From Myxococcota bacterium (GTDB lineage Bacteria; Myxococcota_A; SURF-8; G963677705), in the NCBI GenBank assembly GCA_963677705.1, contig OY782497.1:1900774-1964773 (forward strand): a stretch of 64,000 bases of DNA, given 5' to 3'. The notes under the pieces were generated by a model. The model made no database searches, had not been told where the DNA came from, and saw only the letters and a program-made list of their open reading frames with translations. The position numbers were made by a program, and so were the translations under genes. Every line of letters starts with the position of its first letter. The first letter of the stretch is position 1. Of this stretch, positions 2,787 through 61,216 are shown piece by piece.

Positions 2787-3104
2787 ATGAGCTGGCTGAC
2801 CGACATCGGAATTTCTCATTATCTCGCCCTGGCTGCGCTGCTGTTCACCATCGGCATGATTGGGGTGTTGATCCGCAAAAACGGTTTGATTGTGTTCATG
2901 TGCATCGAATTGATGCTCAACGCCGTCAACCTGACCTTCATCGCCTTTGCCAATCAGGTGGGCAATGAGATGGGACACGCCATCGTGTTCTTCATCATGA
3001 CGGTGGCTGCTGCCGAAGCGGCGGTGGGCCTGGCAATCTTTGTCGCGTTGTACCGTGGCAAGGAAACCGTATACGTGGACGAAGCAGACTCGCTTAAGCA
3101 TTAA
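2787..3104 (+). CDS. nuoK: NADH-quinone oxidoreductase subunit K
   Basis: 105 aa. ...[21 protein letters not shown]... is NuoK/ND4L-like. It lies between nuoJ and nuoL. Confidence 0.85.
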
Positions 3105-14933: not shown

Positions 14934-14948
14934 GTACTTAAGGAAGTG

Positions 14949-18522: not shown

Positions 18523-18768
18523 GGTGATCGTTTGTCCGCCTGATTGATTGCGCTCTTGGGTGAGATATCGAGGAGCGAGAAGCATCCATAGTCATCAAGA
18601 CCAGAGGACAAGCCCCTTCCTTCCTCCAAAACACCGCGTGTAAAAGCGCTCTCACTTTGCCAAAGAAGCAGAACCCTGGCAAGCTATTTGATGCGCGGCA
18701 GAGCGACAAAAACAGGCTCTTTCCTTCAAACCAGGAGAGAGCCTGTGAAACGAGGTCTTCGTCCGTGC

Positions 18769-22755: not shown

Positions 22756-22783
22756 GAAAAACGGGCGGCTCAAGGCCGCCCGT
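22756..22783 (-). terminator. Rho-independent terminator after the giant ORF (minus strand)
   Basis: Read on the minus strand: ACGGGCGGC-cttga-GCCGCCCGT followed by TTTTTCATGG. It sits about 30 nt downstream of the giant gene stop at 22813. Confidence 0.55.
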
Positions 22784-40800: not shown

Positions 40801-43800
40801 TCGGACGCTCATCCCGGAAAGCACCAGTTTCAGGTGAATCCAGCTATTCTGGGTCACTGTGGGTTCTTCACGAACGTCCAATTCCTTGAAGGGGTTGGCG
40901 TCGGTATAGCTGTACAGACCACTCTTACCATCCAGATAGCTGATTCCCGATGTAGCCAGCGCTTTGAAGTTCCGATACGTTACCGTACCAAAGGTCAAGC
41001 CGAAGGCTTCTCCGTTGTTGGTCGCGTAGGCATCCGCTTCAAAGATCACGCTCCCCCCGCTGGGCACCGTATCGTTGGTGACAAACACCTCGTTCCCATC
41101 GGTTACCAGACGACCACCAACCAGGTTGGCCCCGGCGGCTCCGATAATCACATTCCAGGAGTCATCCAGTTCGGCAGCCTCGAAGCGATCCGTGAAACCA
41201 CCGGCAGGCACATAGGAACCCAGAAGGTCGTCTTCAGCACGAGACAGAAGCATCGCTTCCGGTAAGGTGCGATACACCGGGCTCGTCTGACCGTTCTCGT
41301 GGCCAATCAGGTATTGACCGTTGCTGGTCATGCAGGAAACACCCAGGCTCCCGGCGGCCCCGCTGGCCGCGTGAGTACCACGGGCGGTTTCAGACCATTC
41401 CCCCGTAGAGGCCGACCAGTCACGCAGGTTGTAATAAGTAATGGGATAGTTCGCCGCGCCGTTACCACCGACGAAAAGCAGACCGTTCTGAACCGCCACA
41501 CCGGCAGCAGTCAACGTGGCACTGGTTTCAAAGTATCCCAAGGCACTGAAGCCGGAGATGGGATCGCCGGTCAGTCTGTAGCGATAGACCCTCGGCTCGC
41601 CAGCCGCAACGCAATAGAGATAGCGTCCATCGGCAGCCAGACCGTGGCAAGCGGCCATGCCGCCACCCAGCTCCGTTTTCACCCACGTTGCGCCATCATC
41701 GGTCACGGTGAACAGGTTCAGGTTACCCGACGCGCCATCCTGGGTGAAGAAGACGTTGTTGCGAGCATCATAGGCCAAGCCCTGATCTGCATCGGAACCC
41801 AGAGCAATGCTACGCACATGACGCCAATCCGAAGTGTGCTGGCAAACTTCACCGGCATTCAGACTGAAAATGTAATCCTGGCTGAAGCCCGTATCCCGCG
41901 AGGAGGCAAAGGCCATATCGCCAGACATCGGAGCATCACCATCGTAGGTATAAGCACCGGTCAACACCTGGGCGGTGTTGTTGCTCCAGGAGATATCCAC
42001 CTGGTTGTTGGCCGTATCGGCGCTGACCATCATCGCCGGAGCCAGAGGCGCAGTGCGGTCGAAGGAACGCACGCTGGCCGGGTCGCTGGCATCGGAAATG
42101 TCTCCTTCAAACCCGGCGAACACGACGAAGCGATGAAGCTCCGCACTACCGACACGGTTGATCTGGGTGTACCCATTCAAACCCTGCCAGGCGTTGAGCG
42201 TATGCCAGTCCGGAGAGCCGGAGCCGATCATGCCCGTTGTGGCATTGACATAGGTCGATGTGGTTTCATCATAGATGGCGTATTCGGTGCTGCTGCTGTT
42301 GGTTCCAGGATTCAGCACGATACGATACGCGCCTTCATCCACACCCAACGGCAAGGAATTAACCGCATACACGACCGGTTGATCAGGCTTGGAAACCTGA
42401 ATCACTTCCACCTGCCCGTTGGCCCAATCGCTGGCCCACCCGGCATTGTCATAAGCACGAACGCGGAAGTACCAGTTGCCACCGGTCAAGTCTACGGTGT
42501 GGGTGTAGGTGGTGGAGGAACTGAACGCGGACTGAATACCCGTCGCCCAACTTGCATCCAAGGTCCACTCGACTTCATAGGTATTGCTGCTGCGCAGACC
42601 GCTGGTCGCATCACTGGCCGCCGTCCAGGTCCAGAGAGGACGCTGGTTACCGGTCGGTGTGGAAGTCATCGGGATGCCCGGTGCTTCCGGCTTGATGCGG
42701 TCCAAAACAATGTCATCGGTAAGAACGGTGGCGGAAATATTTTCGCCGCCATCTCGGAACCAGGCCGTAACAGTCTTCAGGCCATCAGAACCTTCCAGTG
42801 CGAAGGTTCCACCATAAGGCAGATTTTGCCAGTTTCCGGTCTGGCTGCCATCATTACTCAGGGACATGGCCACGGGTTGCCAGGCGTCGGTGGCATCGGC
42901 ATCCACCGTTACGTTGAGGCTTTGAGTGTATTGAGCCCCACCCGCCAGGGAGAAGCTTGGAGCCGTTGGGCCGGTGCGGTCCAGAATGATGTCATCCGCA
43001 TTGGAGACTTCACCCATATCCGTCCAGTTACCCACGGAATCACGCAGACGGACGTAAACCGTGCGGGAACCGTCACTTCCACCGGACAAGGTCCAGGCGT
43101 AGGGATTCTGTGCGGGATCACTGGGGTTGAAGTCTTGAGACAAGCCATCGACTTCGCCGTCAGAGATCGGCGCATCGTTTTTCACCGCAATCTTCACAAC
43201 ATCGTTGGTTGCTCCGACATTCAGGTTGACGTTCAGGCTGTTGGTGCGATCTTCATCATAGTTGATAACCATGTTGGTCCCGGTCGGAGCCCCACAATCC
43301 AGGTTGTAGGTACCGGTCGTCGACCAATCACTCCAATGCCCGGCTTTATCCTGTGCGCGGGCCTGGAAATACCAGGTTTCTTCATCCCCGGTGGAAATAT
43401 CCGAGGTGTGCAGGTAGTTGGCCGCAGCGCTGGAATCCGTCAAGACTCCGGTGCTAAACCCGCTATTCTGACTCCAGCGGACTTCGTAGGGTTGGGTTTC
43501 ATGCAGGCCGACGCCCTGAGCGGCATCGGAACTAGCCGACCAGGTCCAGTAGGGTTGACGGTTGCAGGCTGGTGTAAGAGTCATTGGTCGACCCGGCACC
43601 GAAGGCGGCGTCGTGTCGTAGATGATGGTATCGGAAACCATCACGCTCTCGTTACCCAGAGGATCACGGAACCAGACATAGACGGCGCGGACTCCATCCC
43701 CGGAATTCAAGGTCCAGTTGTTGTGAATCGTCGAATAGGGCCGCCATACACATTCCGGGAGGCTACCGGGACTGGTGGCATTACAGATACGCATTTCGGA

Positions 43801-46800
43801 CACGCTGGTTTCGTTGTCTACAGCGGAAAGTACCAGATCCACGCTGTCCGAGGTAGTCCATTCATCGCCGCTGTTGATGCTTACCGTCCCATTGACCGGG
43901 GAGGCCGTATCCAGACGAATCTGGCCAGTGGAGCTCCAGGCGGAGACGTTGCCCATCGCATCGTATGCACGGACGTGTACGTAGTAGGTCGTGTCGTTGG
44001 CCCAGGTGTCGCTCACCGTCCAGGCATCACTGTTAACATACAAAGTGGTTGCCCCGACAAACGTATTCACCGTGGCCCACTCAACCTGATAGCTGTTACC
44101 ACCTCGAATACCACTACCCGGCGCGGGGTCGGAACTGGCCGACCAGGTCCAGCCGGGGTGACTTGTGCCGGTCCAGTCGGTCGAGCCGTCGTTCCAGCTT
44201 GCCGTCTGCGGCATCCCCGGCGTAGTGGGGGATGTGGTATCCAACTTGATGGTGTCCGAGTTGGCCGGGCTTTGCACGTTGTTCAACGCATCATAGCAAC
44301 GCACATAGACGGTCTTGACACCGTCACTACCGGTCAATCCCCATGATGGAATGCCCGTATGAGTACCATTGATTGTGTACGTAGACCACGTTGTCTGGTC
44401 GTTGCTTACATCCACCGTATTCGCATCGCCACCGGCATCGGTTACGGTCAAATTTACCAAAGTGCTTCCCGTCCATTCATTCCCACTGTTGATCTGTACC
44501 GTACACTCTGGCGGTTCGGTATCAAGAATGATGGTGTCGCTGTAAGGCGATCCAACCGGGCGGGCGTTGCCACCTGCATCACGGGTCCAGTAGTAAATGG
44601 TTTTCAGACCATTGGATGAGGTCATCGTGAAGTTGCGGGTGAAGTATTCCACGGTCTGAGAGTTGCCGTCGTTCCAGGCTTCCCAAGTACAACCGCTACG
44701 ATCCGCATTGGCGCAAACCATGTACTCATACGGTGCCCAGGCACTGGGGGCATCACTCATCTGGAGTTTGATGGAAACCACCGGGTTGCTGGTGGATGCC
44801 GCTCCGTTGTTGATGACAATGCTACCAACCGGTGCAACCTGATCCAACATGATGGTGTCCGTTACCGACGTCACGTTGATTCCGTTTCCGGTTCCGGCAC
44901 AGGTGCTGCTATCCACACAACCGGCACCGTCGGCGAACTGCATACTCACCGAACGGGTTCCACTCACCGAGTTCAGGACATGAGCCGTCGAGCTACCCGT
45001 CACGGTATGCCAGGCACTCCAGGAAGAAGCTCCATCGTTGGCCACACGGTAGTAAATCGGTGTCCAGGGATCGCTGGCGCTATAATTCAACGTTACCGCC
45101 GTGGTGTTGGTATGAGTCGCACCGTTGTTGATGGACATCGTCACCGTCGGGCCACCGACATCCAAAATCACGCTGTCGGCATTGTAGACAGGGCTGGAGG
45201 TGGGAGACGGGTTGGTATTGTTTCCACCATCGCGGAACTGCACATAAACCCACTTCGTTCCAGGCGTATTAATCAAAGCCCAGTTGGAAACCGTCGGGGT
45301 GAAGTTGGTCCATCCCGTTCCGGAACTGAAGTTGGCATAGTTAGAAACCCGCATCTGCAAGGGCTCGCTGGGCGGGAAGTTCCACGGATCGCTGGCCGTG
45401 ATTTTCAGGTTGACGATATTGGTTGAAGTCGCGGTCAAGGTCGTGCCGGAACCATCCACGATGGTTACACCCGTTCCGGTGGGAGCGGCGGTATCCAGAA
45501 TCACCTGATCCGTCGCCGCCGTCGTGGTTCCGTTACCACCGGCATCCGTAGCCCAAACATAGACGTTCTTCGTTCCGTCCCCGCTACCCAGATCCCAGAC
45601 AATAGGTGTGGTAGTACCGGTCAAAGTGTAGTTGTTACAACTGGAGTCGGTCTGGTTATTCACTGCACAGACACGAGCCGTAACCGGGGTCCAGGCTTCG
45701 TTGGCATAGGAAATCTTCAGTTCAATGTTTCGTGTCGCCGAGCGCTTGGTGCCTCCAGCCGCAGAGGCTGTGAACGCCGCCGCGACACTCTGAGGCGCGT
45801 GCTGATCTACCACAATGCTATCGGATGCGGCGGAAGATTGTAGACTGGTTGCATCTTCAACCTGCAAATAGACAGTGCGGGTACAGCCGGGGCTGGCACA
45901 AGCGGAAAGGCTGATTGAGCCGGAAAGCGTCCAGTTGGGCACCCCAGGCGTTGCCGTTGAAACCGTGGTCCAGGTGGTCGGCCAACTGGCATCGGTATCC
46001 CTGCGCAGACGGTATTTGATCGGCGAGGTATATTCCGTCACCGAAGCCGTCCAGGAAACCGTGGTACTGTTGGTTCTGGCCGCATCATTGTTCAGCTTGA
46101 AGGCGGTAATCACCGGGGCGCTGGTGTCCACATAGGTACAGGAACTCAGCACCGCCGCCGTGGTATTACCACCCCCATCGCGGAATTTGGCATACACGCA
46201 ACGGTTGCCGTTACCTGACGTCAGGGTCCAGAAATGACTCTGCCAATAATCCAGAGCTTTCCAGCCGGTCGTAGAGAAACTGGTGGAACTATTGCTCAGG
46301 TTGACTTCAACATTCGTCCAGGTATCGCTAGCCGCACAAGAAACGGTTACGTTGCTGCTGTTGGTGTACGGACGCTGATCGATGGACATGCTGGTCGAGG
46401 TCGGAGCCGTGGTATCCACACGGAAAGCAAACCAAGAGGACCAACCGGAGACATTGGCCGGGCTGGCTTTGTCCACAGCTTGCACACGAATGTTGTAATT
46501 GCCATCAGCCAGGTCTGAGGAGAAGGTATAAGCCTGCGCGGAGCCGTTGTTGTAGCTCACCGTGCTGGGGCAGTTGAAAATCGTTCCGCTGGCATTCTGA
46601 TATTGACATTTGTAGTAGCTGGTACCGGAACCCGTCACCGGGGAGGCCGTCGCGCCTGGATCGTTTCCACCACTGAAATACACGGTGGGACGTTTGGTCG
46701 CATAGGTCAGGCGGCTTTGAGCCGGACTGTTGGTGATAATTGCAAAAGGCGTAGCCGGAGTGGCCGGAGGCGTATTGTCGATACGGATACGGCGCTTTTC

Positions 46801-49374: not shown

Positions 49375-49604
49375 GACGAACTCCCCATACCGTGTATAAA
49401 AGGTCTTTGATTCCTTACTTGTATAGTCTGGCTTCCGATCTCGTGAACGAAGGAAAGCTCCCCCGTTGAACGTGTCGCCTTGCCCATGCGGCGTTGACTT
49501 CCACGGACCTTGCGGCAAAAGCATCTGCCGTTTTTCTTTGTGTTGTCCGTTCATGGCCGTTTTCCTTTCGTTCACAAGATCGTTCTTTCTCGTCGATTCC
49601 ATCT

Positions 49605-52600
49605 CTACTGGCAACGCCCCCAGGTCAGATCACAGCTTGTATCCGACGGCTCGCAGCCGCGCAGGGTACTCAGATCATCTCCCATGTCACAACCAACGGT
49701 GCAGAACCCTCCTTCACAATGGGCTCCCTTCGTGATCTGGGCTTCCGTCTCAACAAAGCAATCGCTATCATTGACACAGGTGGGATAGGCATGGGGCAGA
49801 CTGCTATCGCCGCAGATACCGCGATCCTCATCGCAGGTATCTCCATTGGTACAATCCGCGTTGCTGAAGCAATCCACACGGCAGATTCCGGTCTGGTAGC
49901 CGTCTTCCACATCCCCATCGGCTTCCCCGACAAGCACGCAATAGCTACCACGCGGGCAATCCTGATGCACGGCCCCGGATTCACCTCCGCTACAGCGGGA
50001 GCGACACTCATCCGCCGGATTGGGCAGATCGCTCGCATCGCACTTTCCACGCTCCAAAGAGCAGCTCAGACAGGGACCGCAACCACGCGGCCCTTCCATC
50101 TGGACACCATGATCACAGCTTGTCTGGCAGGTTCCACCGTCACACCAACTTAGGAAGGGGCAATCCTCATCCGTGGCACAGGAGGGGAATTGATCCGGGT
50201 AGCTTCCCGTTCCACAGACACCACGATCGGTGTTACAGCTTTGCCCATCCGAACACTCGGAGTCTTCAAAACATTCAATCAGACAGCTTCCCGTCTCCGC
50301 ATCGCAATAACTGCCTCTAGCGCAGTCCGTATGGTCGGCACAAGGAGGTCGGTAATAGATGCAGCGACCATAGTCATTGCAGTATTCGTTGTTGCCGCAA
50401 TCACTGTTGTTGTCACAGTCTTTGCTACAGAAAGAGGGGCAATGGTTGCCTTCCGGACATTCCTGAGTACGGCAATAGCCGATAATCACGTCCACACCCT
50501 CTTGCGTAACCTTGCAGTCATCATCTACCTGACACCCTGTCTCGCAGCGATCCCCGACACAGACCATCGTGGGATTAATGGCCTTACAGTCGGCGTCCGG
50601 GTCAGCCTGGTCTGTATCACACAGAGCGAGGAACTTACATTCGCGGGTTTCGATTTCACAGTAGTGATTATCCGGGCAGTCTTCGTTGGTCGCACATTCG
50701 GCACAACGCCCCGCTGCACAGACCGATTCTCCCGAACAGGTTCCACCAAAGCTTCCGTATTCGGTACAATCATAGGTGCATTTTGCGGCGTCAAGGTCAC
50801 AGTAGGTGATAATACCACCGCCCAAGGGATAATCATGCTCGGCAGGCGGCGGATTCAAAGGCAGAACCGGTTGGCAATACGTCGCCGCATCACAATCATG
50901 GGTCTGCTGACAGATTCCATTGTAATCACAGAGCGAACCGCTGGGGCAGTCGGCATTGGTCTGACACTCGAAGGTACAGATACGCCCACCTTCCGCCAGT
51001 TCCTGGCAGTATTCATGAGTGGAACAACTTGGATCCTGACCATGACTGCAGGCGCATTCCCAATCCGCTTCACACTCGTTAGGCACGCAACGCCCTTCAA
51101 GTGTACACATCTCACCTTCCAGGCAATTGTCCAATACATTTTCGGCATTGCACTCGGACTGGCAGAGATTGAAGCCGGTTTCATCATCCATCGCGCAGTG
51201 ATAGTAAGACCCCATATCCTCAGCGCATTCGTTGTCATCCACACAGGTAAACACCGGATTGCAACGTCCAAGGGATTCGTCACAAACAAAGACCAGAGAA
51301 TCATCCGGGTTATCATCTTCACAGGGCGTCTCGGCATTGCAATCCTGAACGCAAAGCGTGGTTTGCAGGTCACAGTGGTAACCGGCGTCGCATTCCTCAT
51401 CGGTTTCATTGGGACAGGTATCGGCTTCCTCACAGATACCGATCTCATTGCAACGCTCGGTTTCCGCATCGCACCCGCTGGCATTGCCATAACAATCGAA
51501 GACGCATTGCCCATACTGGGCTTCGGTGCAGGTGGTTCCGTAGGTCAAGCCCTCACGGCAGCAGTACATATGACCTTGGCCGGCGCAATCTTCATCCGTC
51601 TGGCAACCGTCTTCCACACAGACCTGCTCTTCCATTGCACACTGGCTCTGTCCCGGCGGGCAGCCGCAGAACTGACCCTCCGGGCAGTCGCCGAAGTCGG
51701 AGCAGATGCCGCATTTTCCATTAAGCAGACACTGCTCTCCATCGGGACAGGAGGTCGGCTCGTCAGGATCGCAATCCTGAGTGCAGAAGCCGTAATCAGG
51801 ATGGCTTTCCTCATCCGGACAATAATGATACACGGGGCATTCACTCGTGCTTTCGCAGGGAACAGGATCATCCCCGGCTTCGGGATTGTAGGCACAGACA
51901 TGGCCATTGCAGACATACATACCTTCGCAGACATCCACGGTGGGACAACCGGGTACACACTCAAAGGTCGGGTTATCCCCTTCCATATCGCACTTGAACC
52001 CGACATTACACATCTCGTGTTCCACACAGCCGAGTTCCTCGGTTACACATTCACCATAGACGCAGTCCTGACCTTCAAAACAATCGTCCTCGTCCTCGCA
52101 GTCCATCACACAGATAAGAAGCTGAGGATCACAGTATTTCCCTTGAGGATGACAGAGCGAGGCTTCCGTCTGTTCCGTACAGGTGGTGACATCACCGTCG
52201 GGAACATCTCCTTCTTCACATTGGCCACGACTGTTGCAGAAGTAACCTTCCGAACAGCACGTATCGCCACTGCAGACGGTGTCGTTCAGGCAATCGTAGG
52301 CGCAACTGTTGTTGCCGCAATACTGCCCTTGAGGGCAATCCGTATCTTTGTTGCAACAAGGCGGAGAACTCTGACCGATACACATATCAAGCTGGCAGCG
52401 GCCACGGTCATCACAAAAGGCCATTGATGCGCAATTCAACTCCGGCGGGTTGCAGTCATAACCGCAGGTGGTGTTTTTGCAATACAGACCCATCTGGCAC
52501 TCATCATCCAGAGAACAAGCCTCCCCAAAGGGCAGTCCGTCCTGCTCTTCTTCCTCTTCAATATCGCCATCTTCCTGGCTCAACACGCAACGACCGTGAT

Positions 52601-53768
52601 CGTCGCAGACGGAACCTTCATCACAAAGAACATTTCCGCAAGCGGCGCCACACTGACAACGGCATTCATTGGGATCGGTGATGATCCAGCAATAGCGGCC
52701 AGGGCCGCAGTCATCATCGAACACACAAGGCGTATCGGCATTGTCTTCATCTTCATCACCGTCGATGTCGCCGTCCGTGTCATCCTCTTCATCCACATCA
52801 AGATCACCATCAGAGTCATCTTCTGGATCACTATCTTCATCCACATCCACATCCCCATCCGAGGGAAGCGAACAGGCCACATCGGGATCTCCGGAATAAC
52901 CCGGATCACAGAAGCAATCACCGCCTTCACAATGCGCATGAGTACCACACACCACATTCAGGCAAGCCGGATCGTCTTCCTGGTCCACCTCTTCATCTCC
53001 ATCCGTGGCGACATCACAGGGCGCATAGTCTTTGCTGAAGCGATAAACATTGTCGCCACAAGTCAACACCAATAGTTCCTGCGCCTCACGATAACTCAAC
53101 AGGCAGGCTCCGTTGGCGATGGAGACTTCTCCGTTTTCATCGCAGGTAAACTCACCGCCGAAGGCTTCTTCACCCAAACCATTCAACATGGAAATACTGA
53201 CGTTGCAGCCACTCTGGGAACCGGGACCGAAACGAACAGAGCGATACCCCGCCGAACCGGCGTCATCGGGATGAATACAATAGGTCGCTTGCGGGGGCGC
53301 CGGGCAGGTACAGGGATTTTCTGCATCCGTGTCGCCATCGGTTGCATCCTGGGTACAGGCAGCATTCGGATCACCGGAGAAACCATCATCACAGACACAT
53401 GTCCCGTTTTCGCAATGGGCGTTGGTTCCGCAGATCGTATCCCCGCAGACATCATCGTCGTCGTCCGTCGATCCGTCACCATCGGTCTGGTTATCATCAT
53501 CGTCGTCGGTTACATCGGCATCGGTGACATCATCATCGTCGTCGTCATCATCGCTACCACGGGTACATGTGCCATCCGGCTGGAGGGTGTAAAAAGGCTC
53601 ACAGACACAATTTCCACTGGCATCGTACACCTTGTGTTCACCACATGATTTTACATCACCGTCCCCACCAGAAATACCCCCATCATCACTACAGGCCGAA
53701 GCCATCAGCAGGGTTCCCAAGACGAGGACGCCAAGGGCCAGTCGTTGCATGTTCAGATAAGTCTTCAT
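49605..53768 (-). CDS. Acidic cysteine-rich repeat lipoprotein (EGF-like modules, poly-Asp tracts), ~1,388 aa
   Basis: Start at MKTYLNMQRLALGVLVLGTLLMASAC (lipobox M-A-S-A-C, GGGAG RBS), then SDDGG... The rest is >1,300 aa of Cys-dense modules such as CVCDDGFSGDPNAAC and CFCDPGYSGDPDVAC (EGF-like signature C-x-C-x2-G-[FY]-x-G...C), many C..G.YC..G.C units, and DDDDDDDDVTDADVTDDDDD / DGDLDVDEEDDTDGDIDGDEDED tracts. Confidence 0.7.
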   Translation of the reverse strand: MKTYLNMQRLALGVLVLGTLLMASACSDDGGISGGDGDVKSCGEHKVYDASGNCVCEPFYTLQPDGTCTRGSDDDDDDDDVTDADVTDDDDDNQTDGDGSTDDDDDVCGDTICGTNAHCENGTCVCDDGFSGDPNAACTQDATDGDTDAENPCTCPAPPQATYCIHPDDAGSAGYRSVRFGPGSQSGCNVSISMLNGLGEEAFGGEFTCDENGEVSIANGACLLSYREAQELLVLTCGDNVYRFSKDYAPCDVATDGDEEVDQEDDPACLNVVCGTHAHCEGGDCFCDPGYSGDPDVACSLPSDGDVDVDEDSDPEDDSDGDLDVDEEDDTDGDIDGDEDEDNADTPCVFDDDCGPGRYCWIITDPNECRCQCGAACGNVLCDEGSVCDDHGRCVLSQEDGDIEEEEEQDGLPFGEACSLDDECQMGLYCKNTTCGYDCNPPELNCASMAFCDDRGRCQLDMCIGQSSPPCCNKDTDCPQGQYCGNNSCAYDCLNDTVCSGDTCCSEGYFCNSRGQCEEGDVPDGDVTTCTEQTEASLCHPQGKYCDPQLLICVMDCEDEDDCFEGQDCVYGECVTEELGCVEHEMCNVGFKCDMEGDNPTFECVPGCPTVDVCEGMYVCNGHVCAYNPEAGDDPVPCESTSECPVYHYCPDEESHPDYGFCTQDCDPDEPTSCPDGEQCLLNGKCGICSDFGDCPEGQFCGCPPGQSQCAMEEQVCVEDGCQTDEDCAGQGHMYCCREGLTYGTTCTEAQYGQCVFDCYGNASGCDAETERCNEIGICEEADTCPNETDEECDAGYHCDLQTTLCVQDCNAETPCEDDNPDDSLVFVCDESLGRCNPVFTCVDDNECAEDMGSYYHCAMDDETGFNLCQSECNAENVLDNCLEGEMCTLEGRCVPNECEADWECACSHGQDPSCSTHEYCQELAEGGRICTFECQTNADCPSGSLCDYNGICQQTHDCDAATYCQPVLPLNPPPAEHDYPLGGGIITYCDLDAAKCTYDCTEYGSFGGTCSGESVCAAGRCAECATNEDCPDNHYCEIETRECKFLALCDTDQADPDADCKAINPTMVCVGDRCETGCQVDDDCKVTQEGVDVIIGYCRTQECPEGNHCPSFCSKDCDNNSDCGNNEYCNDYGRCIYYRPPCADHTDCARGSYCDAETGSCLIECFEDSECSDGQSCNTDRGVCGTGSYPDQFPSCATDEDCPFLSWCDGGTCQTSCDHGVQMEGPRGCGPCLSCSLERGKCDASDLPNPADECRSRCSGGESGAVHQDCPRGSYCVLVGEADGDVEDGYQTGICRVDCFSNADCTNGDTCDEDRGICGDSSLPHAYPTCVNDSDCFVETEAQITKGAHCEGGFCTVGCDMGDDLSTLRGCEPSDTSCDLTWGRCQ

Positions 53769-53827
53769 GATCCGGCTCCCGCCTGAAAAGTTGGTTCCAC
53801 AGGGTTTGTGATGGAACATCATCGTCT

Positions 53828-54259
53828 CTACTTCCTATGCAACTTGGGTTTGTTGGCTCGCACCGCTTCTTCCCGGACCTGATACTGCTGATCCAGAGTG
53901 AGAACAGTAATCGTCTCGGCAATCACACCCTTTTCCGGGATGTGCTTGACCTTCACTTCAACCGGTTTGCCCTTCAACAAGGCCGCCGTGGTCATGGTGA
54001 TGGCCAGCTTGGACGAGGCCTGGTTGACAAACTGAGTGGCTTCATCCACAAAAATCAACAAGGGGTATTTGTTCACTTTGAAATACACCTTACCGAATTT
54101 GTTCTCGGTACTGACCTTGGTTACTTCACCCCGAAAGGTCAGCTCTTCCACCACCTTGTCCTGAGTATCTTCCTTGTCCCCTGCCAGAGCGAAGCCCGGC
54201 ACGAGCCCACAGAGAAAAACCAGAACCAAACCGATTGCCACACGTTGATAGGTCATCAC
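53828..54259 (-). CDS. Small secreted protein of unknown function (143 aa)
   Basis: MMTYQRVAIGLVLVFLCGLVPGFALA|GDKED is a signal peptide with an AxA cleavage site. The product is Lys-rich. It lies 6 nt downstream of pilY1 and 5 nt upstream of the Cys-rich ORF. Confidence 0.55.
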   Translation of the reverse strand: MMTYQRVAIGLVLVFLCGLVPGFALAGDKEDTQDKVVEELTFRGEVTKVSTENKFGKVYFKVNKYPLLIFVDEATQFVNQASSKLAITMTTAALLKGKPVEVKVKHIPEKGVIAETITVLTLDQQYQVREEAVRANKPKLHRK

Positions 54260-54265
54260 ACTCCC

Positions 54266-57200
54266 CTATTTCACGCGATAAAACGACGTTTGAGCCCCAC
54301 TGATCGTCGGCGTTCCCGCCACCTCAATCAGAATCGGACTGACATCGGAGGCGGCCTTGACCATCGCCCCCATTTGCGTCACAACCACCTTAGACAACAC
54401 CGCACCGGTAATCTGTTGACCAGCGTATCCGGTGAAAACCGCAGTTGCATCATTGGAAAGATCCCGGTCATGATTGACATCCTGGACCACAAAGGACGGG
54501 TTGGTTCCCGTCTCGGCGCGGACGGTCATGAAAAAGCCACCGCCCTCTTTGTCTACGTTACGCAGATCACAGGTACCCTTCATGTTCGGGGTAAACGTTG
54601 TAAAGAAGTAGATCCATTCTTCCTTGGTCGAGCAACCCGTGGGATCACCCGCCCGGCAATTCTGCTGCATCACCACGCCATCGGTAATCACGCGCTCACC
54701 TTCCAGGCCGGCATTGCTATCCAGTTCGATATGCCAACCTTTGGCAATTTTGGTCGAATCGGAGGTACTGATCGTGCGCCACAGGTTGCCCGTTGTACCC
54801 AGACTATCCGAAACAGAGTTGCTGCGCAGATCGCCTTCGGTGACCATCACACCATCATCACGGTCCACGATACCGAAAACCTGCTGGTGATAAACCGCAC
54901 TGGTAGTATCCGAAGGATCTTCCAGGTGCTTGTCGAAGCTGTCGTAGAAGCTGTCATATTTTCCGGTACCGAAAAATACCATCAAACGGTTGTTGTTGGA
55001 CGAAGAGCCCAGAATATCATCCGTAGGAGTTTCGTCCGTGCGCCAGATTTCCGGCATCACGGTAATGGAACGGGGGTATTTCAGGAATTCATAATCCTGA
55101 TCGGTCGTTCCCACACGATCGTTTTCCACCTTCTGAGTGAAGTCACCGAGGGTTTTCCCACCCATACGGTAGGTGGCAAACAACACCTCACCGCTGACGG
55201 TGGCCATTCCTGCAGCACTCCCGATACTGAAACGGAGCAGGTGTCCTGCCAGGTCGCCGACATAAACGACATCTTCATAGCCGTCGTAATCCTGATCGCC
55301 AACGATAGGGTTGGACAAGACATTGTTGGTCGGCGTCGGGTTGGCATCAATGCCGGAAATATCCGCACTGGTAATGGCCAGTTTTTCAACCAGATCCGCT
55401 TTGTAGTCACCTCCGACACCGTTGAACAAATCCACAGCATAGAAGTAGCCCACTTTTCCAGCCTGCACGGCACTGCTTGAGGCATAACCGGAGCCGAAGA
55501 AAACCAGCCAACTTTCCGGAGGAGGATCTCCCGCACCCAACCTCACACGCCCCGTTGTGGGAACCGAGTAGGTCAGACCAAGATCATCATCGCTGTACCA
55601 CCACATGTATTCTGGGTTCAAATGACCGGAGGGAGCCTGAATTTCAAAGGCATAGTAGGTGTTTCCACCGCCACGGGAACCAACAAGCAACACGGTGGTC
55701 CATTCCGAGGCACCATCATTCCATACATCATGAACCACCGGAGTAAGGTTCATCATCGGTTGACGAAGTTGGGTGTAGAAGGGGCGGGCCAATTCCTTGA
55801 CCTTGGGAAGCACATCCCAGGGGACAAAGGCCCACAGTTCTTGTCCGTTGGTGGCATCGAAACAGTGCAACATACCATCGTTGGCGGAAACCAACAGCAC
55901 CGGATGGCGTTGCTGGAAATCATCGGAGTTGGTGTATTCGGAATACTTCTCCGGCCCCGCGCTGTCTTTCCATCCATTGGCCGGAGCACCACCGACATAC
56001 ACAGGCTCGGCATGGGTCGTATCCCCAAGCAACCACTCCTGATTATCATCGGCGTCGTAGCGGGAACGCATCATGTCCGTCGCAACGAGATTGACCGAGT
56101 AATCTTCATTGGTATCCATCACGACTTTGCGTGAGGGGCTTCCGCCCGTGTTATCGGTATTGTTCTTTTCGCCAAGGAACCATTCTAAAAGTAATTGTGC
56201 TTCTTCTTCGGTATCCACGCCAAGCTGATCTTTCAAAGACGCAGCAGCCGCAGCATTAATCGCCGTCTTGCCTCCGTTGGAAGCCGCCGGACTGTCAGGG
56301 ATTACGGTAAACACGGTACGACTTCCGGAACTGACCAACTCCGGCTCATCTTCGGTGTACCAGTCTTCGGTGCCATCATCCGCAGAGGTGCTGGAACTCC
56401 GGGAAATACACATCCCCAACACACAGACATCGCTTCCACTACAAGAGGAATCCACGCTGGAACAGGCGTTAATGAAGCAATACTTGGTACAGTCGGTGTC
56501 CGACGGACTGCAATCCGGGTGATACTGACAGGAGTCGCCTTGATCGCTGTGCGGGCATTCTTCGGTCTTTTCACACGTGATGGGAAGTCTGGCGGCATGG
56601 ACTTTCCCGCGCCAGTCGCGAGGGTCAAACATGATGTCGAAGATCATCGGCTCGTTGTCTTTCAACGTACCGCCACCAGAGGTTGTGGTGAACGAATCGT
56701 CATCACTGGATACAACAAACAGGGAGCGCGTCGTTCCGTAAGTGGATTCGCGGATCGGGTCGTTGAAGGTCCACCGCATGGGAATGTAAATCGGTTCCTG
56801 ACCTATGGTCAGGTCTGTCCATTGCAACGCAACCGCGTTATCCACCAACTCTTCCAACGGAGCAGGTACGGTGAGATTCAAAGGATTCGTCAGATCCACA
56901 GCGGGGAAGTCATCTTTTTTGAAGCGATAGAACAGCATCGCCCACCAATCTTCCCACAGCGTGGCCGGTTTCTGCAAACCGATGAACCCTTGGAAGAAGC
57001 TGGTTCCACCGGTACCGCCGATCAAGTGGGTCACATCACAGATATAGCCATACCCAAAATCATTTCCGGCGGTATAGGTATCCACGACGAAATTGAAGTC
57101 CACCTGATTGTAGGTTCCACGGAAGGTACTGATCTCCCAGACGACATCGAAATACGGCGTATCATCCGGTTTGTAGACATACTGAACGATGGTGATCTGA

Positions 57201-57796
57201 TCATCTTCCCCCCTCGCCGCGCCTTCCAAGTCAATGCTGAATTGGGTGCGGATGGGATCCCCGGAACTCTGGGAGACATAATCCATCGACTCCACGGCGG
57301 ATTCGGGGAAAATGGTCAAAGGTTCGCTGGAGGGGTCCGGAGCCGAGCCGCTAGTCAGAGCCGGTCCGGCATACTGGGTAGACCATTGGCAGGTGCCGCC
57401 GGTGGCCGCGCATACACTGGGGATCTTCAGACCGATCACCGTGTTGGAGAAACCGGGAATGGCCCGCCCTGTCCGCGAGGTCAAGGAATAAACCTGCTGC
57501 TTGCGCTCGCAGAGGTAGTTACCGGAGCTATCCAGCAGGCCGGGGTCGAACAAAGGCTGGATCGTACCGGCCATTTTCAACTGCTTATCCGCCAGACGCA
57601 GGGAACTGACACCAACCTCACCGCTGGAGTCGTTGGTATTCACCGGCGGGTTGGTGGTGTAGCTACCGGAGCAGATCCCCGTTCCGAGGCCTTCCAGAAC
57701 ATGATATTTGGTTCGATCCAAGGGCTCATCCGCCGCATACACGACCTGGCAGCCAAGCAAGAGAACCAACCAAAGGATAAATCCTGTATGCTTCAT
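54266..57796 (-). CDS. pilY1: Type IV pilus tip-associated adhesin PilY1 (C-terminal beta-propeller)
   Basis: 1,176 aa with a signal peptide. The hallmark PilY1/PilC motif is ...LLVSANDGMLHCFDATNGQELWAFVPWDVLPK... Propeller-type YYAFEI... repeats follow. An EF-hand-like D-x-D-x-D-G-x-x-D loop (GDQDYDGYED) is present, as in the Pseudomonas PilY1 Ca site. It lies directly after pilX. Confidence 0.8.
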   Translation of the reverse strand: MKHTGFILWLVLLLGCQVVYAADEPLDRTKYHVLEGLGTGICSGSYTTNPPVNTNDSSGEVGVSSLRLADKQLKMAGTIQPLFDPGLLDSSGNYLCERKQQVYSLTSRTGRAIPGFSNTVIGLKIPSVCAATGGTCQWSTQYAGPALTSGSAPDPSSEPLTIFPESAVESMDYVSQSSGDPIRTQFSIDLEGAARGEDDQITIVQYVYKPDDTPYFDVVWEISTFRGTYNQVDFNFVVDTYTAGNDFGYGYICDVTHLIGGTGGTSFFQGFIGLQKPATLWEDWWAMLFYRFKKDDFPAVDLTNPLNLTVPAPLEELVDNAVALQWTDLTIGQEPIYIPMRWTFNDPIRESTYGTTRSLFVVSSDDDSFTTTSGGGTLKDNEPMIFDIMFDPRDWRGKVHAARLPITCEKTEECPHSDQGDSCQYHPDCSPSDTDCTKYCFINACSSVDSSCSGSDVCVLGMCISRSSSTSADDGTEDWYTEDEPELVSSGSRTVFTVIPDSPAASNGGKTAINAAAAASLKDQLGVDTEEEAQLLLEWFLGEKNNTDNTGGSPSRKVVMDTNEDYSVNLVATDMMRSRYDADDNQEWLLGDTTHAEPVYVGGAPANGWKDSAGPEKYSEYTNSDDFQQRHPVLLVSANDGMLHCFDATNGQELWAFVPWDVLPKVKELARPFYTQLRQPMMNLTPVVHDVWNDGASEWTTVLLVGSRGGGNTYYAFEIQAPSGHLNPEYMWWYSDDDLGLTYSVPTTGRVRLGAGDPPPESWLVFFGSGYASSSAVQAGKVGYFYAVDLFNGVGGDYKADLVEKLAITSADISGIDANPTPTNNVLSNPIVGDQDYDGYEDVVYVGDLAGHLLRFSIGSAAGMATVSGEVLFATYRMGGKTLGDFTQKVENDRVGTTDQDYEFLKYPRSITVMPEIWRTDETPTDDILGSSSNNNRLMVFFGTGKYDSFYDSFDKHLEDPSDTTSAVYHQQVFGIVDRDDGVMVTEGDLRSNSVSDSLGTTGNLWRTISTSDSTKIAKGWHIELDSNAGLEGERVITDGVVMQQNCRAGDPTGCSTKEEWIYFFTTFTPNMKGTCDLRNVDKEGGGFFMTVRAETGTNPSFVVQDVNHDRDLSNDATAVFTGYAGQQITGAVLSKVVVTQMGAMVKAASDVSPILIEVAGTPTISGAQTSFYRVK

Positions 57797-57813
57797 GATC
57801 TCCTCGCTCCCAC

Positions 57814-58323
57814 CTAGTCCGAAATCCGCGTCAATTGCTCAACCGTCTGCACCCACTTGACCACAGGTCCTGGCGTGCCATCAGACTGCAAAGGCCGATA
57901 CATGGAATCAATCTTGTACACAAAAATCCGCTTACGCTTCTGGGCGCGTTGCCCGGAGCCTCGGTTGTCGGTTACGGTATTGTCCACACGGGCGTCAATA
58001 GTATCAATACAATACATCGTATTCTGGTCACCGGGTGGGTAGTAATGCGTCGTCGCCGCATCCTGGCAATTGTAGCCCTCAAGGTTGGGGTTCGTAGACC
58101 CTGCAACGATGGTACGCGCCATTTCCGCCCCCGCTTCCGCCAAGGCCAAGCCGCGCACGCTATCCCGAAAAGCCATCGCGATACGCTGCTCCTGCACCGA
58201 GGTATTCATCGCCGCAACTCCCAGGAGCGAGAGCATAATCATCAACACCATCGACATAATCAGAGCCGCCCCACGGTTGGTAGCATAAAACCACAAGGAG
58301 GATCGCTTTGTATTGGACGCCAT
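57814..58323 (-). CDS. pilX: Type IV pilus minor pilin PilX
   Basis: ...NRGAALIMSMVLMIMLSLLGVAAMNTSVQEQRIAMAFRDS...LALAEAGAE matches the PilX N-terminal domain pattern (QRGAALIVALxLLxVLTLLGxAAM...E). 169 aa. Confidence 0.65.
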   Translation of the reverse strand: MASNTKRSSLWFYATNRGAALIMSMVLMIMLSLLGVAAMNTSVQEQRIAMAFRDSVRGLALAEAGAEMARTIVAGSTNPNLEGYNCQDAATTHYYPPGDQNTMYCIDTIDARVDNTVTDNRGSGQRAQKRKRIFVYKIDSMYRPLQSDGTPGPVVKWVQTVEQLTRISD

Positions 58324-58334
58324 ATCCTTCTCCC

Positions 58335-59387
58335 TTAGGGAACCAGGTTATTCAAAGACGCATTGGGCAAACTCACAATGGTGGACATCTGCGTGTAATG
58401 AAACTTTTCACTCCCCGTCACGTCCACGACATTGCCGCCTAAATAGAACTTCAACTTGACATCGTCTCCCGCTTCAATGGAGGCATCTTCATACTTACTA
58501 CGCACGAGCAGTTCAATTTTCACCCCCAGGACCAGTTGGCGATTGGCCTGAGAGGAGGGATCATACGCCGGATCAAACACCGCCCCGGCAGAATTCACAA
58601 TATAGGAATACTGAATATCCTGCACATCCTCAACCACTACAAAGTCCGTTTCCGGGTTGGCCGGGCTGGGGATGGTGTTTTCCAGGCTACCATCACAGGC
58701 ATCCGTTGGCACATCACGAACACAGCGGAACAAACGGGTTCCAATCGCTTGGTAGGTGATCCACACCGGCTGCTGGACGATCATCGTTCCCGGCCAAAGC
58801 GTGGACTCCGTAACATTGGAAAAGCTATTAAGCATCAACTGACTTTCAGGGGTCAGCACGGAACCAAGATCCCCCACAATAGCTTGGGCGACACGGGTAC
58901 GATTAATGTCCAAAAGATCCACGGCCATGCCCTGTTGAAAATAATCCTGTCCATCACCAAGAATTGCAGGAATCTCATGAACATCCACCATAAGCCCCGT
59001 TGCCCCATTACTGACAGACAGCTCCTGAGTCGTCACACTGACCGCACCCATGCCGGAACGAAACTGAATCACATCCGGCGACCCACTGTTGTTCAGACAA
59101 TTCGGACCCAAGGCCATTTCAAGCTCCGGGTTGCTGGCACCATTGACTTCGGAACGATTCTGCCCACCCAGGCCCGCCATCTGCAATTCACCGGCAATAA
59201 TATCCAAAGCGGCACGAACCGACTGCTGAGCCTGGCTCATCCGCCCACTGGTCTGATAGGCCTGGTGGCTAGATGCAAAAATCGTGACCGCCGCACCAAT
59301 CACGATGGTGGACAGCAAACCCGACACCAGTAACTCAACCAAGGTAAACCCGGAACGATGCATTCGACCCTCCATCAACACACTCAT
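58335..59387 (-). CDS. pilW: Type IV pilus minor pilin PilW
   Basis: ...MHRSGFTLVELLVSGLLSTIVIGAAVTIFASSHQAYQ...LQMAG is a prepilin leader plus G|FTLVE methylation motif, with PilW-like length. Its ATG overlaps the pilV stop (ATGA). Confidence 0.7.
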   Translation of the reverse strand: MSVLMEGRMHRSGFTLVELLVSGLLSTIVIGAAVTIFASSHQAYQTSGRMSQAQQSVRAALDIIAGELQMAGLGGQNRSEVNGASNPELEMALGPNCLNNSGSPDVIQFRSGMGAVSVTTQELSVSNGATGLMVDVHEIPAILGDGQDYFQQGMAVDLLDINRTRVAQAIVGDLGSVLTPESQLMLNSFSNVTESTLWPGTMIVQQPVWITYQAIGTRLFRCVRDVPTDACDGSLENTIPSPANPETDFVVVEDVQDIQYSYIVNSAGAVFDPAYDPSSQANRQLVLGVKIELLVRSKYEDASIEAGDDVKLKFYLGGNVVDVTGSEKFHYTQMSTIVSLPNASLNNLVP

Positions 59388-59866
59388 GGCCTGACCTGCA
59401 TGATAATGGGCACACGACCGGACGTAATCACCGGACGATCTGACCCCGCATCACTCGTATCTTCCCAACTGACCTGAACCTCTACAAAACGATAGGCTCC
59501 CGGCAGGTTGGGATCGACACCAATAGGACTGGTGATAATGGTACGCACGCTGTACTTGACCTGCTCAACGACATCCCCAGGGAGAGCCCCAGATTGATAA
59601 TCCATCGCATTCACATCCACCGTAGTATCGGAGTCTGCCAGACGAGGATCTGTCGTCATCGTTCCTGCCGCCATCTGGTAGAAATAGGGATAGCTTTTCA
59701 ATTCATTCAGCCGGGCGTTCATCAAGTTGGCACCGATACTGATATCCGCACCCAACACGTTTCCCTTGATTGCACTGACCTGCATCCCCGCCAAAGCAAA
59801 CATGCCGATGGAAACCAGCAGCACACTCATCAAAATTTCAACAATGGTAAAGCCTCGATACATCAT
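59384..59866 (-). CDS. pilV: Type IV pilus minor pilin PilV
   Basis: MMYRG|FTIVEILMSVLLVSIGMFALAGMQ is a class III signal peptide with a PilV-like N-terminal helix. 160 aa. Confidence 0.7.
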   Translation of the reverse strand: MMYRGFTIVEILMSVLLVSIGMFALAGMQVSAIKGNVLGADISIGANLMNARLNELKSYPYFYQMAAGTMTTDPRLADSDTTVDVNAMDYQSGALPGDVVEQVKYSVRTIITSPIGVDPNLPGAYRFVEVQVSWEDTSDAGSDRPVITSGRVPIIMQVRP

Positions 59867-59877
59867 CCAAGCCCTCC

Positions 59878-60402
59878 CTACAACACGCCATTTGCAGACG
59901 TGACAACGCCCACAGGATTCACAGTGTATGTCACATAGCTGGAACCGGCACCACAGCCACCCCCATCAAGACTTTCGCAAATGGAAAAACTCAACACGGA
60001 AACCATTCCCGTGGTTGCAATCAACTGTCCACGAGGATTGAAGGCATGGGCATCAATAGCTGCCTGCAACTCTGCAGCTCTGGGAAATGTAACCCGCACC
60101 ACCATCACATCTGTGCCATCCGTAAAGGTCCAGTTGTCATCCACGTCACGAAACACGACAACCTGGGTCGCGCCATCACCGTTTACAGAATCATCCACCA
60201 CGACATTGCGCCCGGAACTAATTGCCTCAGAGCGCCCGGAATTCAAGGCTGTCAACACCTCACGCGCAGCAGCCGAGAACTGACGCGCATCCCTGTCTTT
60301 GCCCATGCTGGTGATCGCCATCGAGGCGAGAATCCCGATAATCACGACCACGGTCAGGAGCTCAATCAACGTAAGACCTTGTCTGTTTGACATTCGTACC
60401 AT
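59878..60402 (-). CDS. fimT: Type IV pilus minor pilin, FimT/FimU/GspH family
   Basis: MVRMSNRQG|LTLIELLTVVVIIGILASMAITSMGKDRDARQFSAAAREVLTALNSGRSEAI is GspH/FimT-like. Start set at the ATG 7 nt after GGAGA; the ORF-track start lies further upstream. First gene of the minor-pilin operon. Confidence 0.65.
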   Translation of the reverse strand: MVRMSNRQGLTLIELLTVVVIIGILASMAITSMGKDRDARQFSAAAREVLTALNSGRSEAISSGRNVVVDDSVNGDGATQVVVFRDVDDNWTFTDGTDVMVVRVTFPRAAELQAAIDAHAFNPRGQLIATTGMVSVLSFSICESLDGGGCGAGSSYVTYTVNPVGVVTSANGVL

Positions 60403-60619
60403 TGGACATTCTCCATGCAATCCAACCCGCACTTTTGACATGCAATTTTCATTCCACGAAGAGGGGCAACTTTGAAAAGCGTTGTGATTTTCAAACGATA
60501 CTACAAAGCACCGAGAACTCAAAGTATATTTCTCTGTGAGGAAAAGCCTTGGCGGATCACCCCTTGCAGTTTCTGAAAAAGCCATCGATTTTCCAGGAAA
60601 AACCTGCAAGGTTTGCAGC

Positions 60620-60653
60620 AAAAAAAGAAAAAGCTATGCATGTTTTGCATAGC
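60620..60653 (-). terminator. Rho-independent terminator immediately downstream of pilA
   Basis: Minus strand: GCTATGCA-aaaca-TGCATAGC, a perfect 8-bp stem, followed by TTTTTCTTTTTTT. Confidence 0.6.
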
Positions 60654-60733
60654 TCCTGAATCACACAGATATCAACAGCAAATCATACTGGACACCAACA
60701 GATCCGTGTCCTCGAAAAACAAACCGCGATCTA

Positions 60734-61159: not shown

Positions 61160-61200
61160 CGCTCTCTCTCCTTCTTCCATCCAAACGGTTGTATCGTTTT

Positions 61201-61216
61201 GCAAAAAACGATCCAG
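61201..61216 (-). promoter_or_regulatory. Candidate sigma-54 (-24/-12) promoter of pilA
   Basis: Minus strand reads cTGGatcgttttTTGCAaa, giving GG-N10-GC spacing and a TTGCA -12 element. It sits 25-40 nt upstream of the pilA RBS, in the 60-nt pilC-pilA gap. Confidence 0.45.

Follow-up and report, generated by a model that had tools for sequence, protein, structure and literature searches.

A minor-pilin/pilY1 operon that runs on into genes for a cysteine-rich lipoprotein and a giant secreted protein in a clade of Myxococcota

The locus and its genes

This report concerns a type IVa pilus (T4aP) locus on the minus strand of a 64-kb stretch of DNA (hereafter the window) from a Myxococcota bacterium (GenBank GCA_963677705.1, contig OY782497.1, positions 1,900,774 to 1,964,773), in which a minor-pilin/pilY1 operon is followed by genes for a small secreted protein, a Cys-rich lipoprotein and a giant secreted protein. 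Open reading frames (ORFs) were listed in six frames and translated, and domains were assigned with Pfam and NCBIfam. A preliminary description made from the letters of the window had proposed these ORFs and their order, and both are as it described them according to the ORF listing, Pfam and NCBIfam. The minus strand carries, in this order, pilT, pilC, pilA, a terminator, fimT, pilV, pilW, pilX, pilY1, the small-protein gene, the Cys-rich lipoprotein gene, the giant gene and a second terminator. The features, in window coordinates, are as follows (SD, Shine-Dalgarno sequence).

63593-62487, minus strand: pilT (Pfam/NCBIfam, T2SSE family)
62428-61220, minus strand: pilC (Pfam/NCBIfam, T2SSF family)
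61200..61215, minus strand: sigma-54-type -24/-12 motif TGGATCGTTTTTTGCA upstream of pilA, conserved in the relative L003
60734..61159, minus strand: major pilin gene, pilA-like, 141 aa (Pfam N_methyl and ComP_DUS; NCBIfam pilin models)
60629..60657, minus strand: intrinsic terminator after pilA, a 12-bp stem then a T-run, strong as judged from its sequence, separating pilA from fimT
60441..60456, minus strand: sigma-54-type -24/-12 motif TGGAATGAAAATTGCA, candidate operon promoter, 38 nt upstream of the fimT ATG
59878..60402, minus strand: fimT/fimU, GspH-like minor pilin, 174 aa (Pfam GspH and N_methyl; TIGR01708, E 4e-13)
59384..59866, minus strand: pilV, PilI/GspI-class minor pilin, 160 aa (TIGR02523 PilV, E 5e-7; weak N_methyl)
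58335..59387, minus strand: pilW, PilJ-class minor pilin, 342-350 aa, overlapping the pilV stop (Pfam PilW and N_methyl)
57814..58323, minus strand: pilX, PilK/GspK-class minor pilin, 169 aa (Pfam PilX_N, E 4e-12; weak GspK match)
54266..57796, minus strand: pilY1, 1,176 aa (Pfam T4P_PilY1, PF05567, E 5e-18)
53828..54256, minus strand: small secreted protein, 142 aa (ORF; outside the Pfam and NCBIfam families)
49605..53768, minus strand: acidic Cys-rich lipoprotein, 1,387 aa (ORF; start placed by a conserved SD and ATG)
49375..49604, minus strand: stretch between the Cys-rich and giant genes, open in the frame of the giant gene (in-frame ATGs at 49602 and 49554; shuffle test)
22813..49374, minus strand: giant secreted protein, 8,853 aa from an ATG with SD (ORF; Pfam/NCBIfam)
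22756..22783, minus strand: intrinsic terminator 30 nt past the giant stop codon, ACGGGCGGC-cttga-GCCGCCCGT then TTTT, read directly from the sequence

The four core minor pilins carry class III (N-methylation) signals and stand in the syntenic H-I-J-K order, which is the same in all relatives whose contigs span these genes. Among the core T4aP genes, pilT, pilC and pilA lie directly upstream in the window, joined in relatives by pilB, while pilMNOPQ lie outside it. Domain matches and gene order place the operon's first half in the T4aP minor-pilin/PilY1 family.

Conservation of the arrangement

Further loci were collected through a cluster mate of PilC, homologues of the Cys-rich protein, full-length homologues of PilY1 and two scans of sequence collections that used an alignment of PilY1; a scan of genome contigs with the single PilY1 sequence returned no match, and the alignment-based rescan succeeded. 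The loci represent about nine further lineages of uncultured Myxococcota, with a PilY1 that is 31-42% identical in the distant ones. A near-identical strain (L002) has the same arrangement, and the L001/L003 locus, at 72.8% nucleotide identity, stays colinear from pilT as far as the beginning of the giant gene. In L004, L005/L016, L006/L015, L007/L013 and L010/L011, PilY1 is 37-42% identical and the giant genes found after pilY1 encode at least 2,685 aa (L004), 10,058 aa (L005), 10,500 aa (L006), 10,470 aa (L007) and at least 4,769 aa (L010); L012, L014 and L023 are partial contigs. Wherever the contig reaches, pilY1 is followed by a gene for a 142-190-aa secreted protein, one for an acidic lipoprotein of 1,002-1,387 aa with 11-13% Cys and then a giant gene, the Cys-rich gene sitting between the small and giant genes in all lineages but one. 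That one is L008/L017, in which PilY1 is 31% identical, the minor-pilin operon lies away from pilBTC/pilA and the Cys-rich gene is absent; the order there is still fimT, pilV, pilW, pilX, pilY1, the small gene and a gene of at least 5,634 aa. Since the genes upstream of pilB differ from one locus to another, the conserved block is specific and does not reflect general colinearity of the genomes. The arrangement is far beyond chance and recurs in every relative of the clade that was recovered.

Beyond this clade the pattern stops. More distant PilY1 loci (26-29% identity; Thiobacillus, Archangium and other Myxococcota) have pilin-sized genes after pilY1 and no giant gene. Whether the three downstream genes always follow pilY1 had been raised in the preliminary description: the small and giant genes do so in all relatives with enough sequence, down to 31% PilY1 identity, and the Cys-rich gene in all but L008. 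The same description had named giant or Cys-rich genes at loci devoid of pil genes as what would speak against a link, and the searches made found no true homologue of either gene away from pil genes. Only P0008 came up, an off-locus match to the Cys-rich protein without pil genes, which is a weak match to EGF_TEN-type repeats covering 13% of the query and was rejected as an orthologue.

In the long-read contig of L001/L003 (ENA ERZ21862665 ctg7370l), frameshifts break pilY1, the small gene, the Cys-rich gene and the start of the giant gene; these are most likely indel errors of the assembly rather than signs of pseudogenes.

Transcription signals

A sigma-54-type -24/-12 motif, TGG-N8-TTGC[AT], stands no more than about 70 nt before the fimT start in 9/9 loci that include this region. 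With the pilA copy of L003 counted in, its positions in the relatives are 3267 and 2509 in L003, 3727 in L004, 7234 in L005, 7231 in L006, 7094 in L007, 7116 in L010 and 7309 in L008. The expected background is about 5e-5 per nt, and the whole 64-kb minus strand has only four matches. None of the gaps that precede the small, Cys-rich and giant genes contains the motif, and a consensus scan of the coding strand detected no terminator-like or sigma-70-like site in the gaps between the two terminators of the window, nor any in the same gaps of L005 and L007. No Rfam RNA family was matched in 48.5-62 kb.

With terminators at both ends and a single conserved motif, the simplest reading is one transcription unit from fimT to the giant gene, and this unit is probably driven by sigma-54. 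The statement in the preliminary description that no terminator occurs until after the giant gene holds, the hairpin at 22756-22783 being real and the gaps being free of terminator-like sites in the scans. Strong independent promoters or terminators between the genes, which it had given as grounds against its proposal, did not appear in the scans of those gaps, and the promoter search that it had proposed for 49375-49604 yielded neither a sigma-70-like nor a sigma-54-type site.

In L008, a divergent gene about 4 kb upstream encodes a protein with FHA, sigma-54 activator and helix-turn-helix parts.

Gene junctions

The spacing between the genes had been given as 6 nt after pilY1, 5 nt before the Cys-rich gene and about 230 nt before the giant gene, and these values need revision to different degrees. 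The small gene starts 9 nt past the pilY1 stop, with GGGGAG in between; the value of 6 nt applies only if a GTG start is used, which gives a protein of 143 aa. The Cys-rich gene starts at 53768, in a GGGAG-N7-ATG context shared with L003, and the ATG at 53822 is not conserved. Because the conserved SD and ATG sit at 53768, the gap between the small and Cys-rich genes is 59 nt and not 5 nt, and the lipoprotein has 1,387 aa.

The 230 nt between the Cys-rich and giant genes (49375-49604) are in fact open in the reading frame of the giant gene. A good ribosome-binding site precedes the ATG of this gene at 49374, and further in-frame ATGs are found at 49602, 2 nt past the Cys-rich stop, and at 49554. 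The same openness in the giant frame is seen in 8/9 loci, with in-frame ATGs 0-30 nt from the Cys-rich stop or overlapping it, both other frames being closed almost without exception; in L004, L005 and L010 the two ORFs even share a frame, with one stop codon between them. In a shuffle test, such an open gap has P = 0.015 for the window and a joint P of about 4e-5 over five independent lineages. The gap also holds two islands of nucleotide conservation with L003, namely an SD-like AAGGAA with the ATG at 49554, and GGGGAG with the ATG at 49374. Probably it encodes a basic leader at the N-terminus of the giant protein or provides an alternative start, and the untranslated spacing may be only 2-50 nt; the junction could involve a long basic leader, dual starts or stop-codon read-through. 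The Cys-rich/giant junction is therefore tighter than was held in the preliminary description.

PilY1 and its conserved N-domain

PilY1 comprises an N-domain conserved in the clade, a knot of eight Cys, a C-terminal β-propeller with a DxDxDGxxD motif and a C-terminal TxFYR[IV]K sequence, a putative strand. An AlphaFold2 model built from ten clade sequences has a mean pLDDT (the per-residue confidence score) of 53, reaching 60-88 in the propeller, and its top PDB match in Foldseek is the C-terminal domain of Pseudomonas aeruginosa PilY1 (3HX6, E 5e-19, TM 0.66); in the N-domain, confidence is too low for a fold to be assigned. The motif DQDYDGYED at residues 834-842, in which D834 and G839 are invariant in the clade and D838 and D842 nearly so, is a predicted EF-hand-like calcium site in the propeller. 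At the very C-terminus, xTxFYR[IV]K is conserved in 10/10 clade members. A C-terminal β-strand of about 10 residues in PilC/PilY1 completes the sheet of PilK/PilX by β-strand addition (PMC13533445), and the conservation of the C-terminus here fits that mechanism. With its modelled propeller fold, predicted calcium motif and putative C-terminal strand of conserved sequence, the protein is a bona fide member of the PilY1 family.

The N-domain is unusual. Residues 200-400 are conserved like the propeller (54% vs 57% pairwise identity), whereas the N-domain is variable in known T4aP, and the small protein, the lipoprotein and above all the giant protein evolve much faster than PilY1.

The eight-Cys knot (residues 400-470; window 56400-56600, minus strand) is an insertion in the N-domain, conserved across the clade and similar in appearance to the repeats of the lipoprotein. 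Homology between this knot and the Cys repeats of the lipoprotein was considered and dropped, a hidden Markov model of the knot having matched no Cys-rich or giant protein.

The small protein, the lipoprotein and the giant protein

The small protein has a signal for signal peptidase I, a β-rich core and a charged C-terminal helix, with a pI of 9.3. It belongs to no Pfam or NCBIfam family and matched only its own genome's copy in a search of 5.8 billion proteins; a single-sequence AlphaFold2 model (pLDDT 42) was unusable. Mutually homologous proteins are nevertheless encoded at the same position in L004-L007, L010, L012 and L014, with a weak match in L008, and L023 has a candidate ORF there that matches in size. 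Most of these homologues are basic with a charged C-terminal tail, as in TfcP, and in all loci the gene lies 9-26 nt after pilY1.

The lipoprotein (13% Cys, pI 4.05) starts with a lipobox (LMASA/C), followed by an EGF-like module, a poly-Asp spacer, a conserved Cys domain of about 100 aa (aa ~150-255), an acidic spacer and about 25 Cys-rich repeats. Orthologues in seven other lineages share the N-terminal architecture, and L023 has a candidate ORF of at least 1,209 aa at that position. The lipobox has neither Asp nor Lys at +2 in eight orthologues. The protein is a Sec/signal peptidase II lipoprotein encoded in an operon of pilin genes, and it is predicted to go to the outer membrane.

The giant protein (8,853 aa, 953 kDa, pI 4.35) is encoded by a frame that is unbroken for 26.5 kb. 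It has a single N-terminal hydrophobic signal, a Sec signal peptide ending ALA/QV, then an orphan N-region of 650 aa and about 50-55 Ig/fn3-like repeats of some 100 aa arranged in blocks, with weak matches to Big_13, Y_Y_Y, Ig_J and OmpL47. Three unique insert regions have lectin-like ConA/LamG folds. DxAGN-type Ig repeats are common to the giant proteins of every lineage. At the C-terminus lies an FGE-sulfatase-fold domain (E 2e-25), whose best NCBIfam match is PorK/GldK and which was all that sequence searches of the PDB matched. As the segment where the catalytic Cys pair is expected reads RGGAWNSGLSETRAFYR and contains no Cys, this domain is non-catalytic; it probably serves in binding or as a scaffold. 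No match to autotransporter, TPS, RTX, MYXO-CTERM/PEP-CTERM or sorting-tag domains was found in the whole giant protein (Pfam/NCBIfam, E<=0.01-0.1), with the proviso that a cryptic barrel may hide in the orphan N-region, and Pfam gave no SecA/DEAD match either. Among 1.84 billion representatives, the N-region has no relatives besides fragments from L003.

Three side observations concern the giant protein. PorK/GldK is a ring lipoprotein of the type IX secretion system, which the giant C-terminus (window 22813-23700, minus strand) resembles, and 8 kb from the giant gene lies a gene for another protein with an FGE-sulfatase domain, of 545 aa (window 13296-14933, plus strand). The giant protein also has a three-fold super-modular layout, in which each block of Ig-like repeats leads into an fn3-like 'TEYAIYD' unit and then a unique region, a LamG-like and a CBM-like domain; internal likenesses, such as those between residues ~2,900-3,050 and ~6,000-6,150 and between ~2,790-2,840 and ~3,850-3,920, suggest that large segments were duplicated within the protein.

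Strain-level variation and selection

Comparison of the window with L002 revealed a single difference in 10 kb of pil genes and then 2-4% divergence over an 8-kb block (L002 10,500-18,500; window ~53,270-45,270), beyond which near-identity resumes. The block, probably an imported recombination tract, begins some 500 nt inside the Cys-rich gene and ends near residue 1,370 of the giant protein. Allelic variation is thus concentrated at the lipoprotein and the giant N-terminus. Within the block, synonymous codon changes outnumber non-synonymous ones by 64 to 22 in the Cys-rich gene (rough dN/dS ~0.1) and by 100 to 49 in the giant gene (~0.16). Because synonymous changes dominate, both genes are functional and, on this codon evidence, under purifying selection. 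GC content at third codon positions (GC3) is similar across the genes of the operon and does not point to a recent horizontal acquisition of the downstream genes, and there are no mobile-element genes at the operon.

A pilus-coupled giant adhesin?

A conserved gene order, tight or overlapping spacing, one promoter motif, terminators at the ends, a genuine PilY1 and selection on the Cys-rich and giant genes define the unit. Its first half encodes a complete T4aP priming and tip module, made of FimT, PilV, PilW and PilX with PilY1, and its second half a small, mostly basic periplasmic protein, a predicted outer-membrane lipoprotein and a Sec-exported protein of about 1 MDa with Ig-like and lectin-like domains. 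We infer that the downstream proteins would be tip-associated adhesins or T4P-exported cargo. In such a scheme, the minor-pilin/PilY1 complex would act as a device for the export or display of the giant adhesin, which might either be pushed through the PilQ secretin, in the way the pseudopilus of the type II secretion system (T2SS) pushes its cargo, or be carried at the tip of the pilus. The small protein would serve as an accessory or adaptor in the periplasm, much like TfcP, by which PilY1.1 is stabilised in Myxococcus xanthus (PMC8833165), and the lipoprotein a surface anchor or partner. The variable adhesive function would then have moved from the N-domain of PilY1, conserved here, to the fast-evolving giant protein. 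That the giant protein is functionally and physically coupled to the pilus machine seems to us an even call.

Several points weigh against this coupling. The consensus scan for promoters is blind to internal promoters of other types, and the co-transcription of the fimT-to-giant unit is our reading of the sequence alone. The Cys-rich protein is missing in L008. No domain suited to docking on pilins or on PilY1 turned up, and the N-terminal ~700 aa of the giant protein are not conserved between lineages, even at profile level, with no detectable relative beyond their own species-level lineage; phmmer, BLAST and hhalign detected no conserved N-terminal docking domain between the window's lineage and the others. 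Furthermore, a superfolder GFP (sfGFP) tag on PilY1.3 or PilW3 of M. xanthus is believed to obstruct transit through the secretin (PMC8833165), so that passage of a 953-kDa protein via PilQ would need an unprecedented bead-on-a-string mode. The boldest version of the scheme, in which the T4aP of this clade would be a dual-purpose machine whose tip threads a bead-on-a-string adhesin of ~1 MDa through PilQ and either carries it at the tip of the retractile fibre or hands it to the lipoprotein, seems to us somewhat unlikely. Were it true, such a pilus would be a retractable 'harpoon line' for the capture of prey or surfaces, and there would be direct evidence of a T4aP working as a T2SS-like exporter for giant cargo.

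Some of these points lend themselves to an explanation by co-regulation only, according to which the giant adhesin and the lipoprotein would be made together with the pilus for attachment or prey contact and would reach the surface by another route than the pilus machine. The lack of an interaction or docking domain, the unconserved giant N-termini and the steric doubt about moving 953 kDa through a secretin (PMC8833165) are all compatible with it, and a content of Ig/fn3 and lectin-like domains is typical of free-standing giant adhesins. However, the position after pilY1 and the small gene is strict at 31-42% PilY1 identity, which is tighter than co-regulation usually keeps, and it survives both the unlinking of pilBTC/pilA in L008 and the change of flanks from locus to locus. 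Moreover, no other module for outer-membrane translocation or anchoring was found in the giant protein. We regard co-regulation alone as somewhat unlikely.

It would also be conceivable that only the small protein is tied to the pilus, stabilising PilY1 in the manner of TfcP, and that the Cys-rich and giant genes occupy a permissive 'slot', transcribed by read-through, into which large variable genes are inserted and exchanged with no functional tie to the pilus. Such a scenario would account for the small gene being the most tightly coupled of the three in all loci, for the TfcP-like charged tail of its mostly basic products, for the great differences in giant N-terminal content between lineages and for the probable recombination tract that takes in the greater part of the Cys-rich gene and the beginning of the giant one. 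It is nevertheless rather improbable, because every lineage has the same kinds of protein at this place (the lipoprotein N-terminal architecture, the DxAGN-type Ig repeats), both occupants are under purifying selection, and neither mobile-element genes nor a shift in GC3 mark the place. Finally, a giant ORF or an adjacency produced by repeat misassembly or by a spurious long frame, which the highly repetitive giant gene and the many frameshifts of the L003 contig might bring to mind, is exceedingly improbable given that the same arrangement is found in independent assemblies from at least eight samples, contigs of 2.4 and 4.1 Mb included, and that the 26.5-kb frame is uninterrupted and dominated by synonymous changes.

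Relation to known systems

The closest relatives of the first half are the minor-pilin/PilY1 complexes of T4aP (P. aeruginosa fimU-pilVWXY1; M. xanthus clusters 1-3), with which it shares the H-I-J-K order followed by pilY1, the propeller, the calcium motif and, putatively, the C-terminal strand (PMC7541494, PMC8833165, PMC13533445). A small periplasmic accessory inside such a cluster has a precedent in M. xanthus TfcP (PMC8833165). The known clusters end with pilY1, sometimes followed by pilE or pilY2, or contain at most a small accessory gene, and none has been described with a lipoprotein of 1,000-1,400 aa and a protein of 5,000-10,500 aa.

Taken as a whole, the unit most resembles, by analogy, type IV filament systems that co-encode their cargo, such as T2SS with PulA or SslE and type IVb pili (T4bP) with CofJ or TcpF. 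Lipoprotein cargo is co-encoded with T2SS in the case of Klebsiella PulA and of Escherichia coli SslE/YghJ, the latter in a T2SS-beta operon; these proteins are exported by Sec, pushed through the secretin by a filament tipped with minor pilins and held on the cell surface. The likeness is that of a large Sec-exported lipoprotein in an operon with (pseudo)pilin genes. The differences are that the system described here is a T4aP with PilT and PilY1 and that its putative cargo is up to 6-8 times larger. Nor were Gsp-specific matches for GspC/L/M/D found in the window or in the flanks of the relatives, where the neighbours are pilB/T/C/A of T4aP.

CofJ of enterotoxigenic E. coli is a non-pilin protein from a pilus operon, exported by a T4bP, which binds to the minor-pilin tip (PMC6048534), and TcpF of Vibrio cholerae is likewise co-encoded and exported. 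A non-pilin secreted protein encoded in a pilus operon is the common element, whereas these systems belong to the T4b class, have a tip formed by a trimer of a single minor pilin and export soluble cargo of 30-40 kDa, without sequence similarity to the proteins described here. In the Kil (Tad) pilus of Myxococcus, the tip is also customised by variable exposed domains for contact with the target (PMC12075869), but this is a Tad/T4c pilus and the variable domains lie within minor pilins ('Tips') and not in separate giant proteins (PMC12075869).

In Omnitrophota, giant genes are reported to follow loci of T2SS/T4P-like type (West-Roberts et al. 2023, 10.1101/2023.11.21.568195; 2026 preprint 10.64898/2026.06.07.730766). 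Those too are very large genes of adhesion or carbohydrate-binding type with a type IV filament locus upstream, and they have been read as serving attachment to prey or other cells. They encode more than 30,000 aa, with many transmembrane segments and SecA-like DEAD domains, and have gspD/E/F or Tad cassettes within about 20 ORFs. The giant gene described here belongs to Myxococcota, encodes 8,853 aa with one signal peptide and is joined directly to a minor-pilin/pilY1 operon; the size, many transmembrane segments and SecA-like domains that define the Omnitrophota giants are lacking. The preliminary description did not recognise the arrangement as a described one. This stands in so far as a full-text search of the literature found no paper linking pilY1 with a giant gene, and must be tempered in view of the Omnitrophota giant genes beside T2SS/T4P-like loci.

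Little is known of the way in which giant surface proteins get across the outer membrane of diderms, and the use of motility-type T4a pili, like their T2SS relatives, as devices for secretion or display is an open question. The clade described here offers a conserved genetic unit in which both come together, with candidates for an adaptor (the small protein), an anchor (the lipoprotein) and a cargo (the giant protein). It extends the association of giant genes with type IV filaments from Omnitrophota to Myxococcota, in a tighter form at the level of the operon, and it suggests a division of labour in which the N-domain of PilY1 is conserved while adhesive specificity would evolve in a separate, recombining giant gene.

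Other features of the window

Past the 3' end of the giant gene lies a gene for a Ser/Thr kinase with a PEGA domain (16327-18585, minus strand), and a gene for an 845-aa response-regulator protein (20007-22544, plus strand) is convergent on the giant gene. GC content dips to 0.43 at 14001-16000, compared with ~0.57 elsewhere; this stretch takes in the last part of the FGE-domain gene together with a 456-aa ORF without Pfam match (14949-16319, minus strand), and it may be a small foreign insert.

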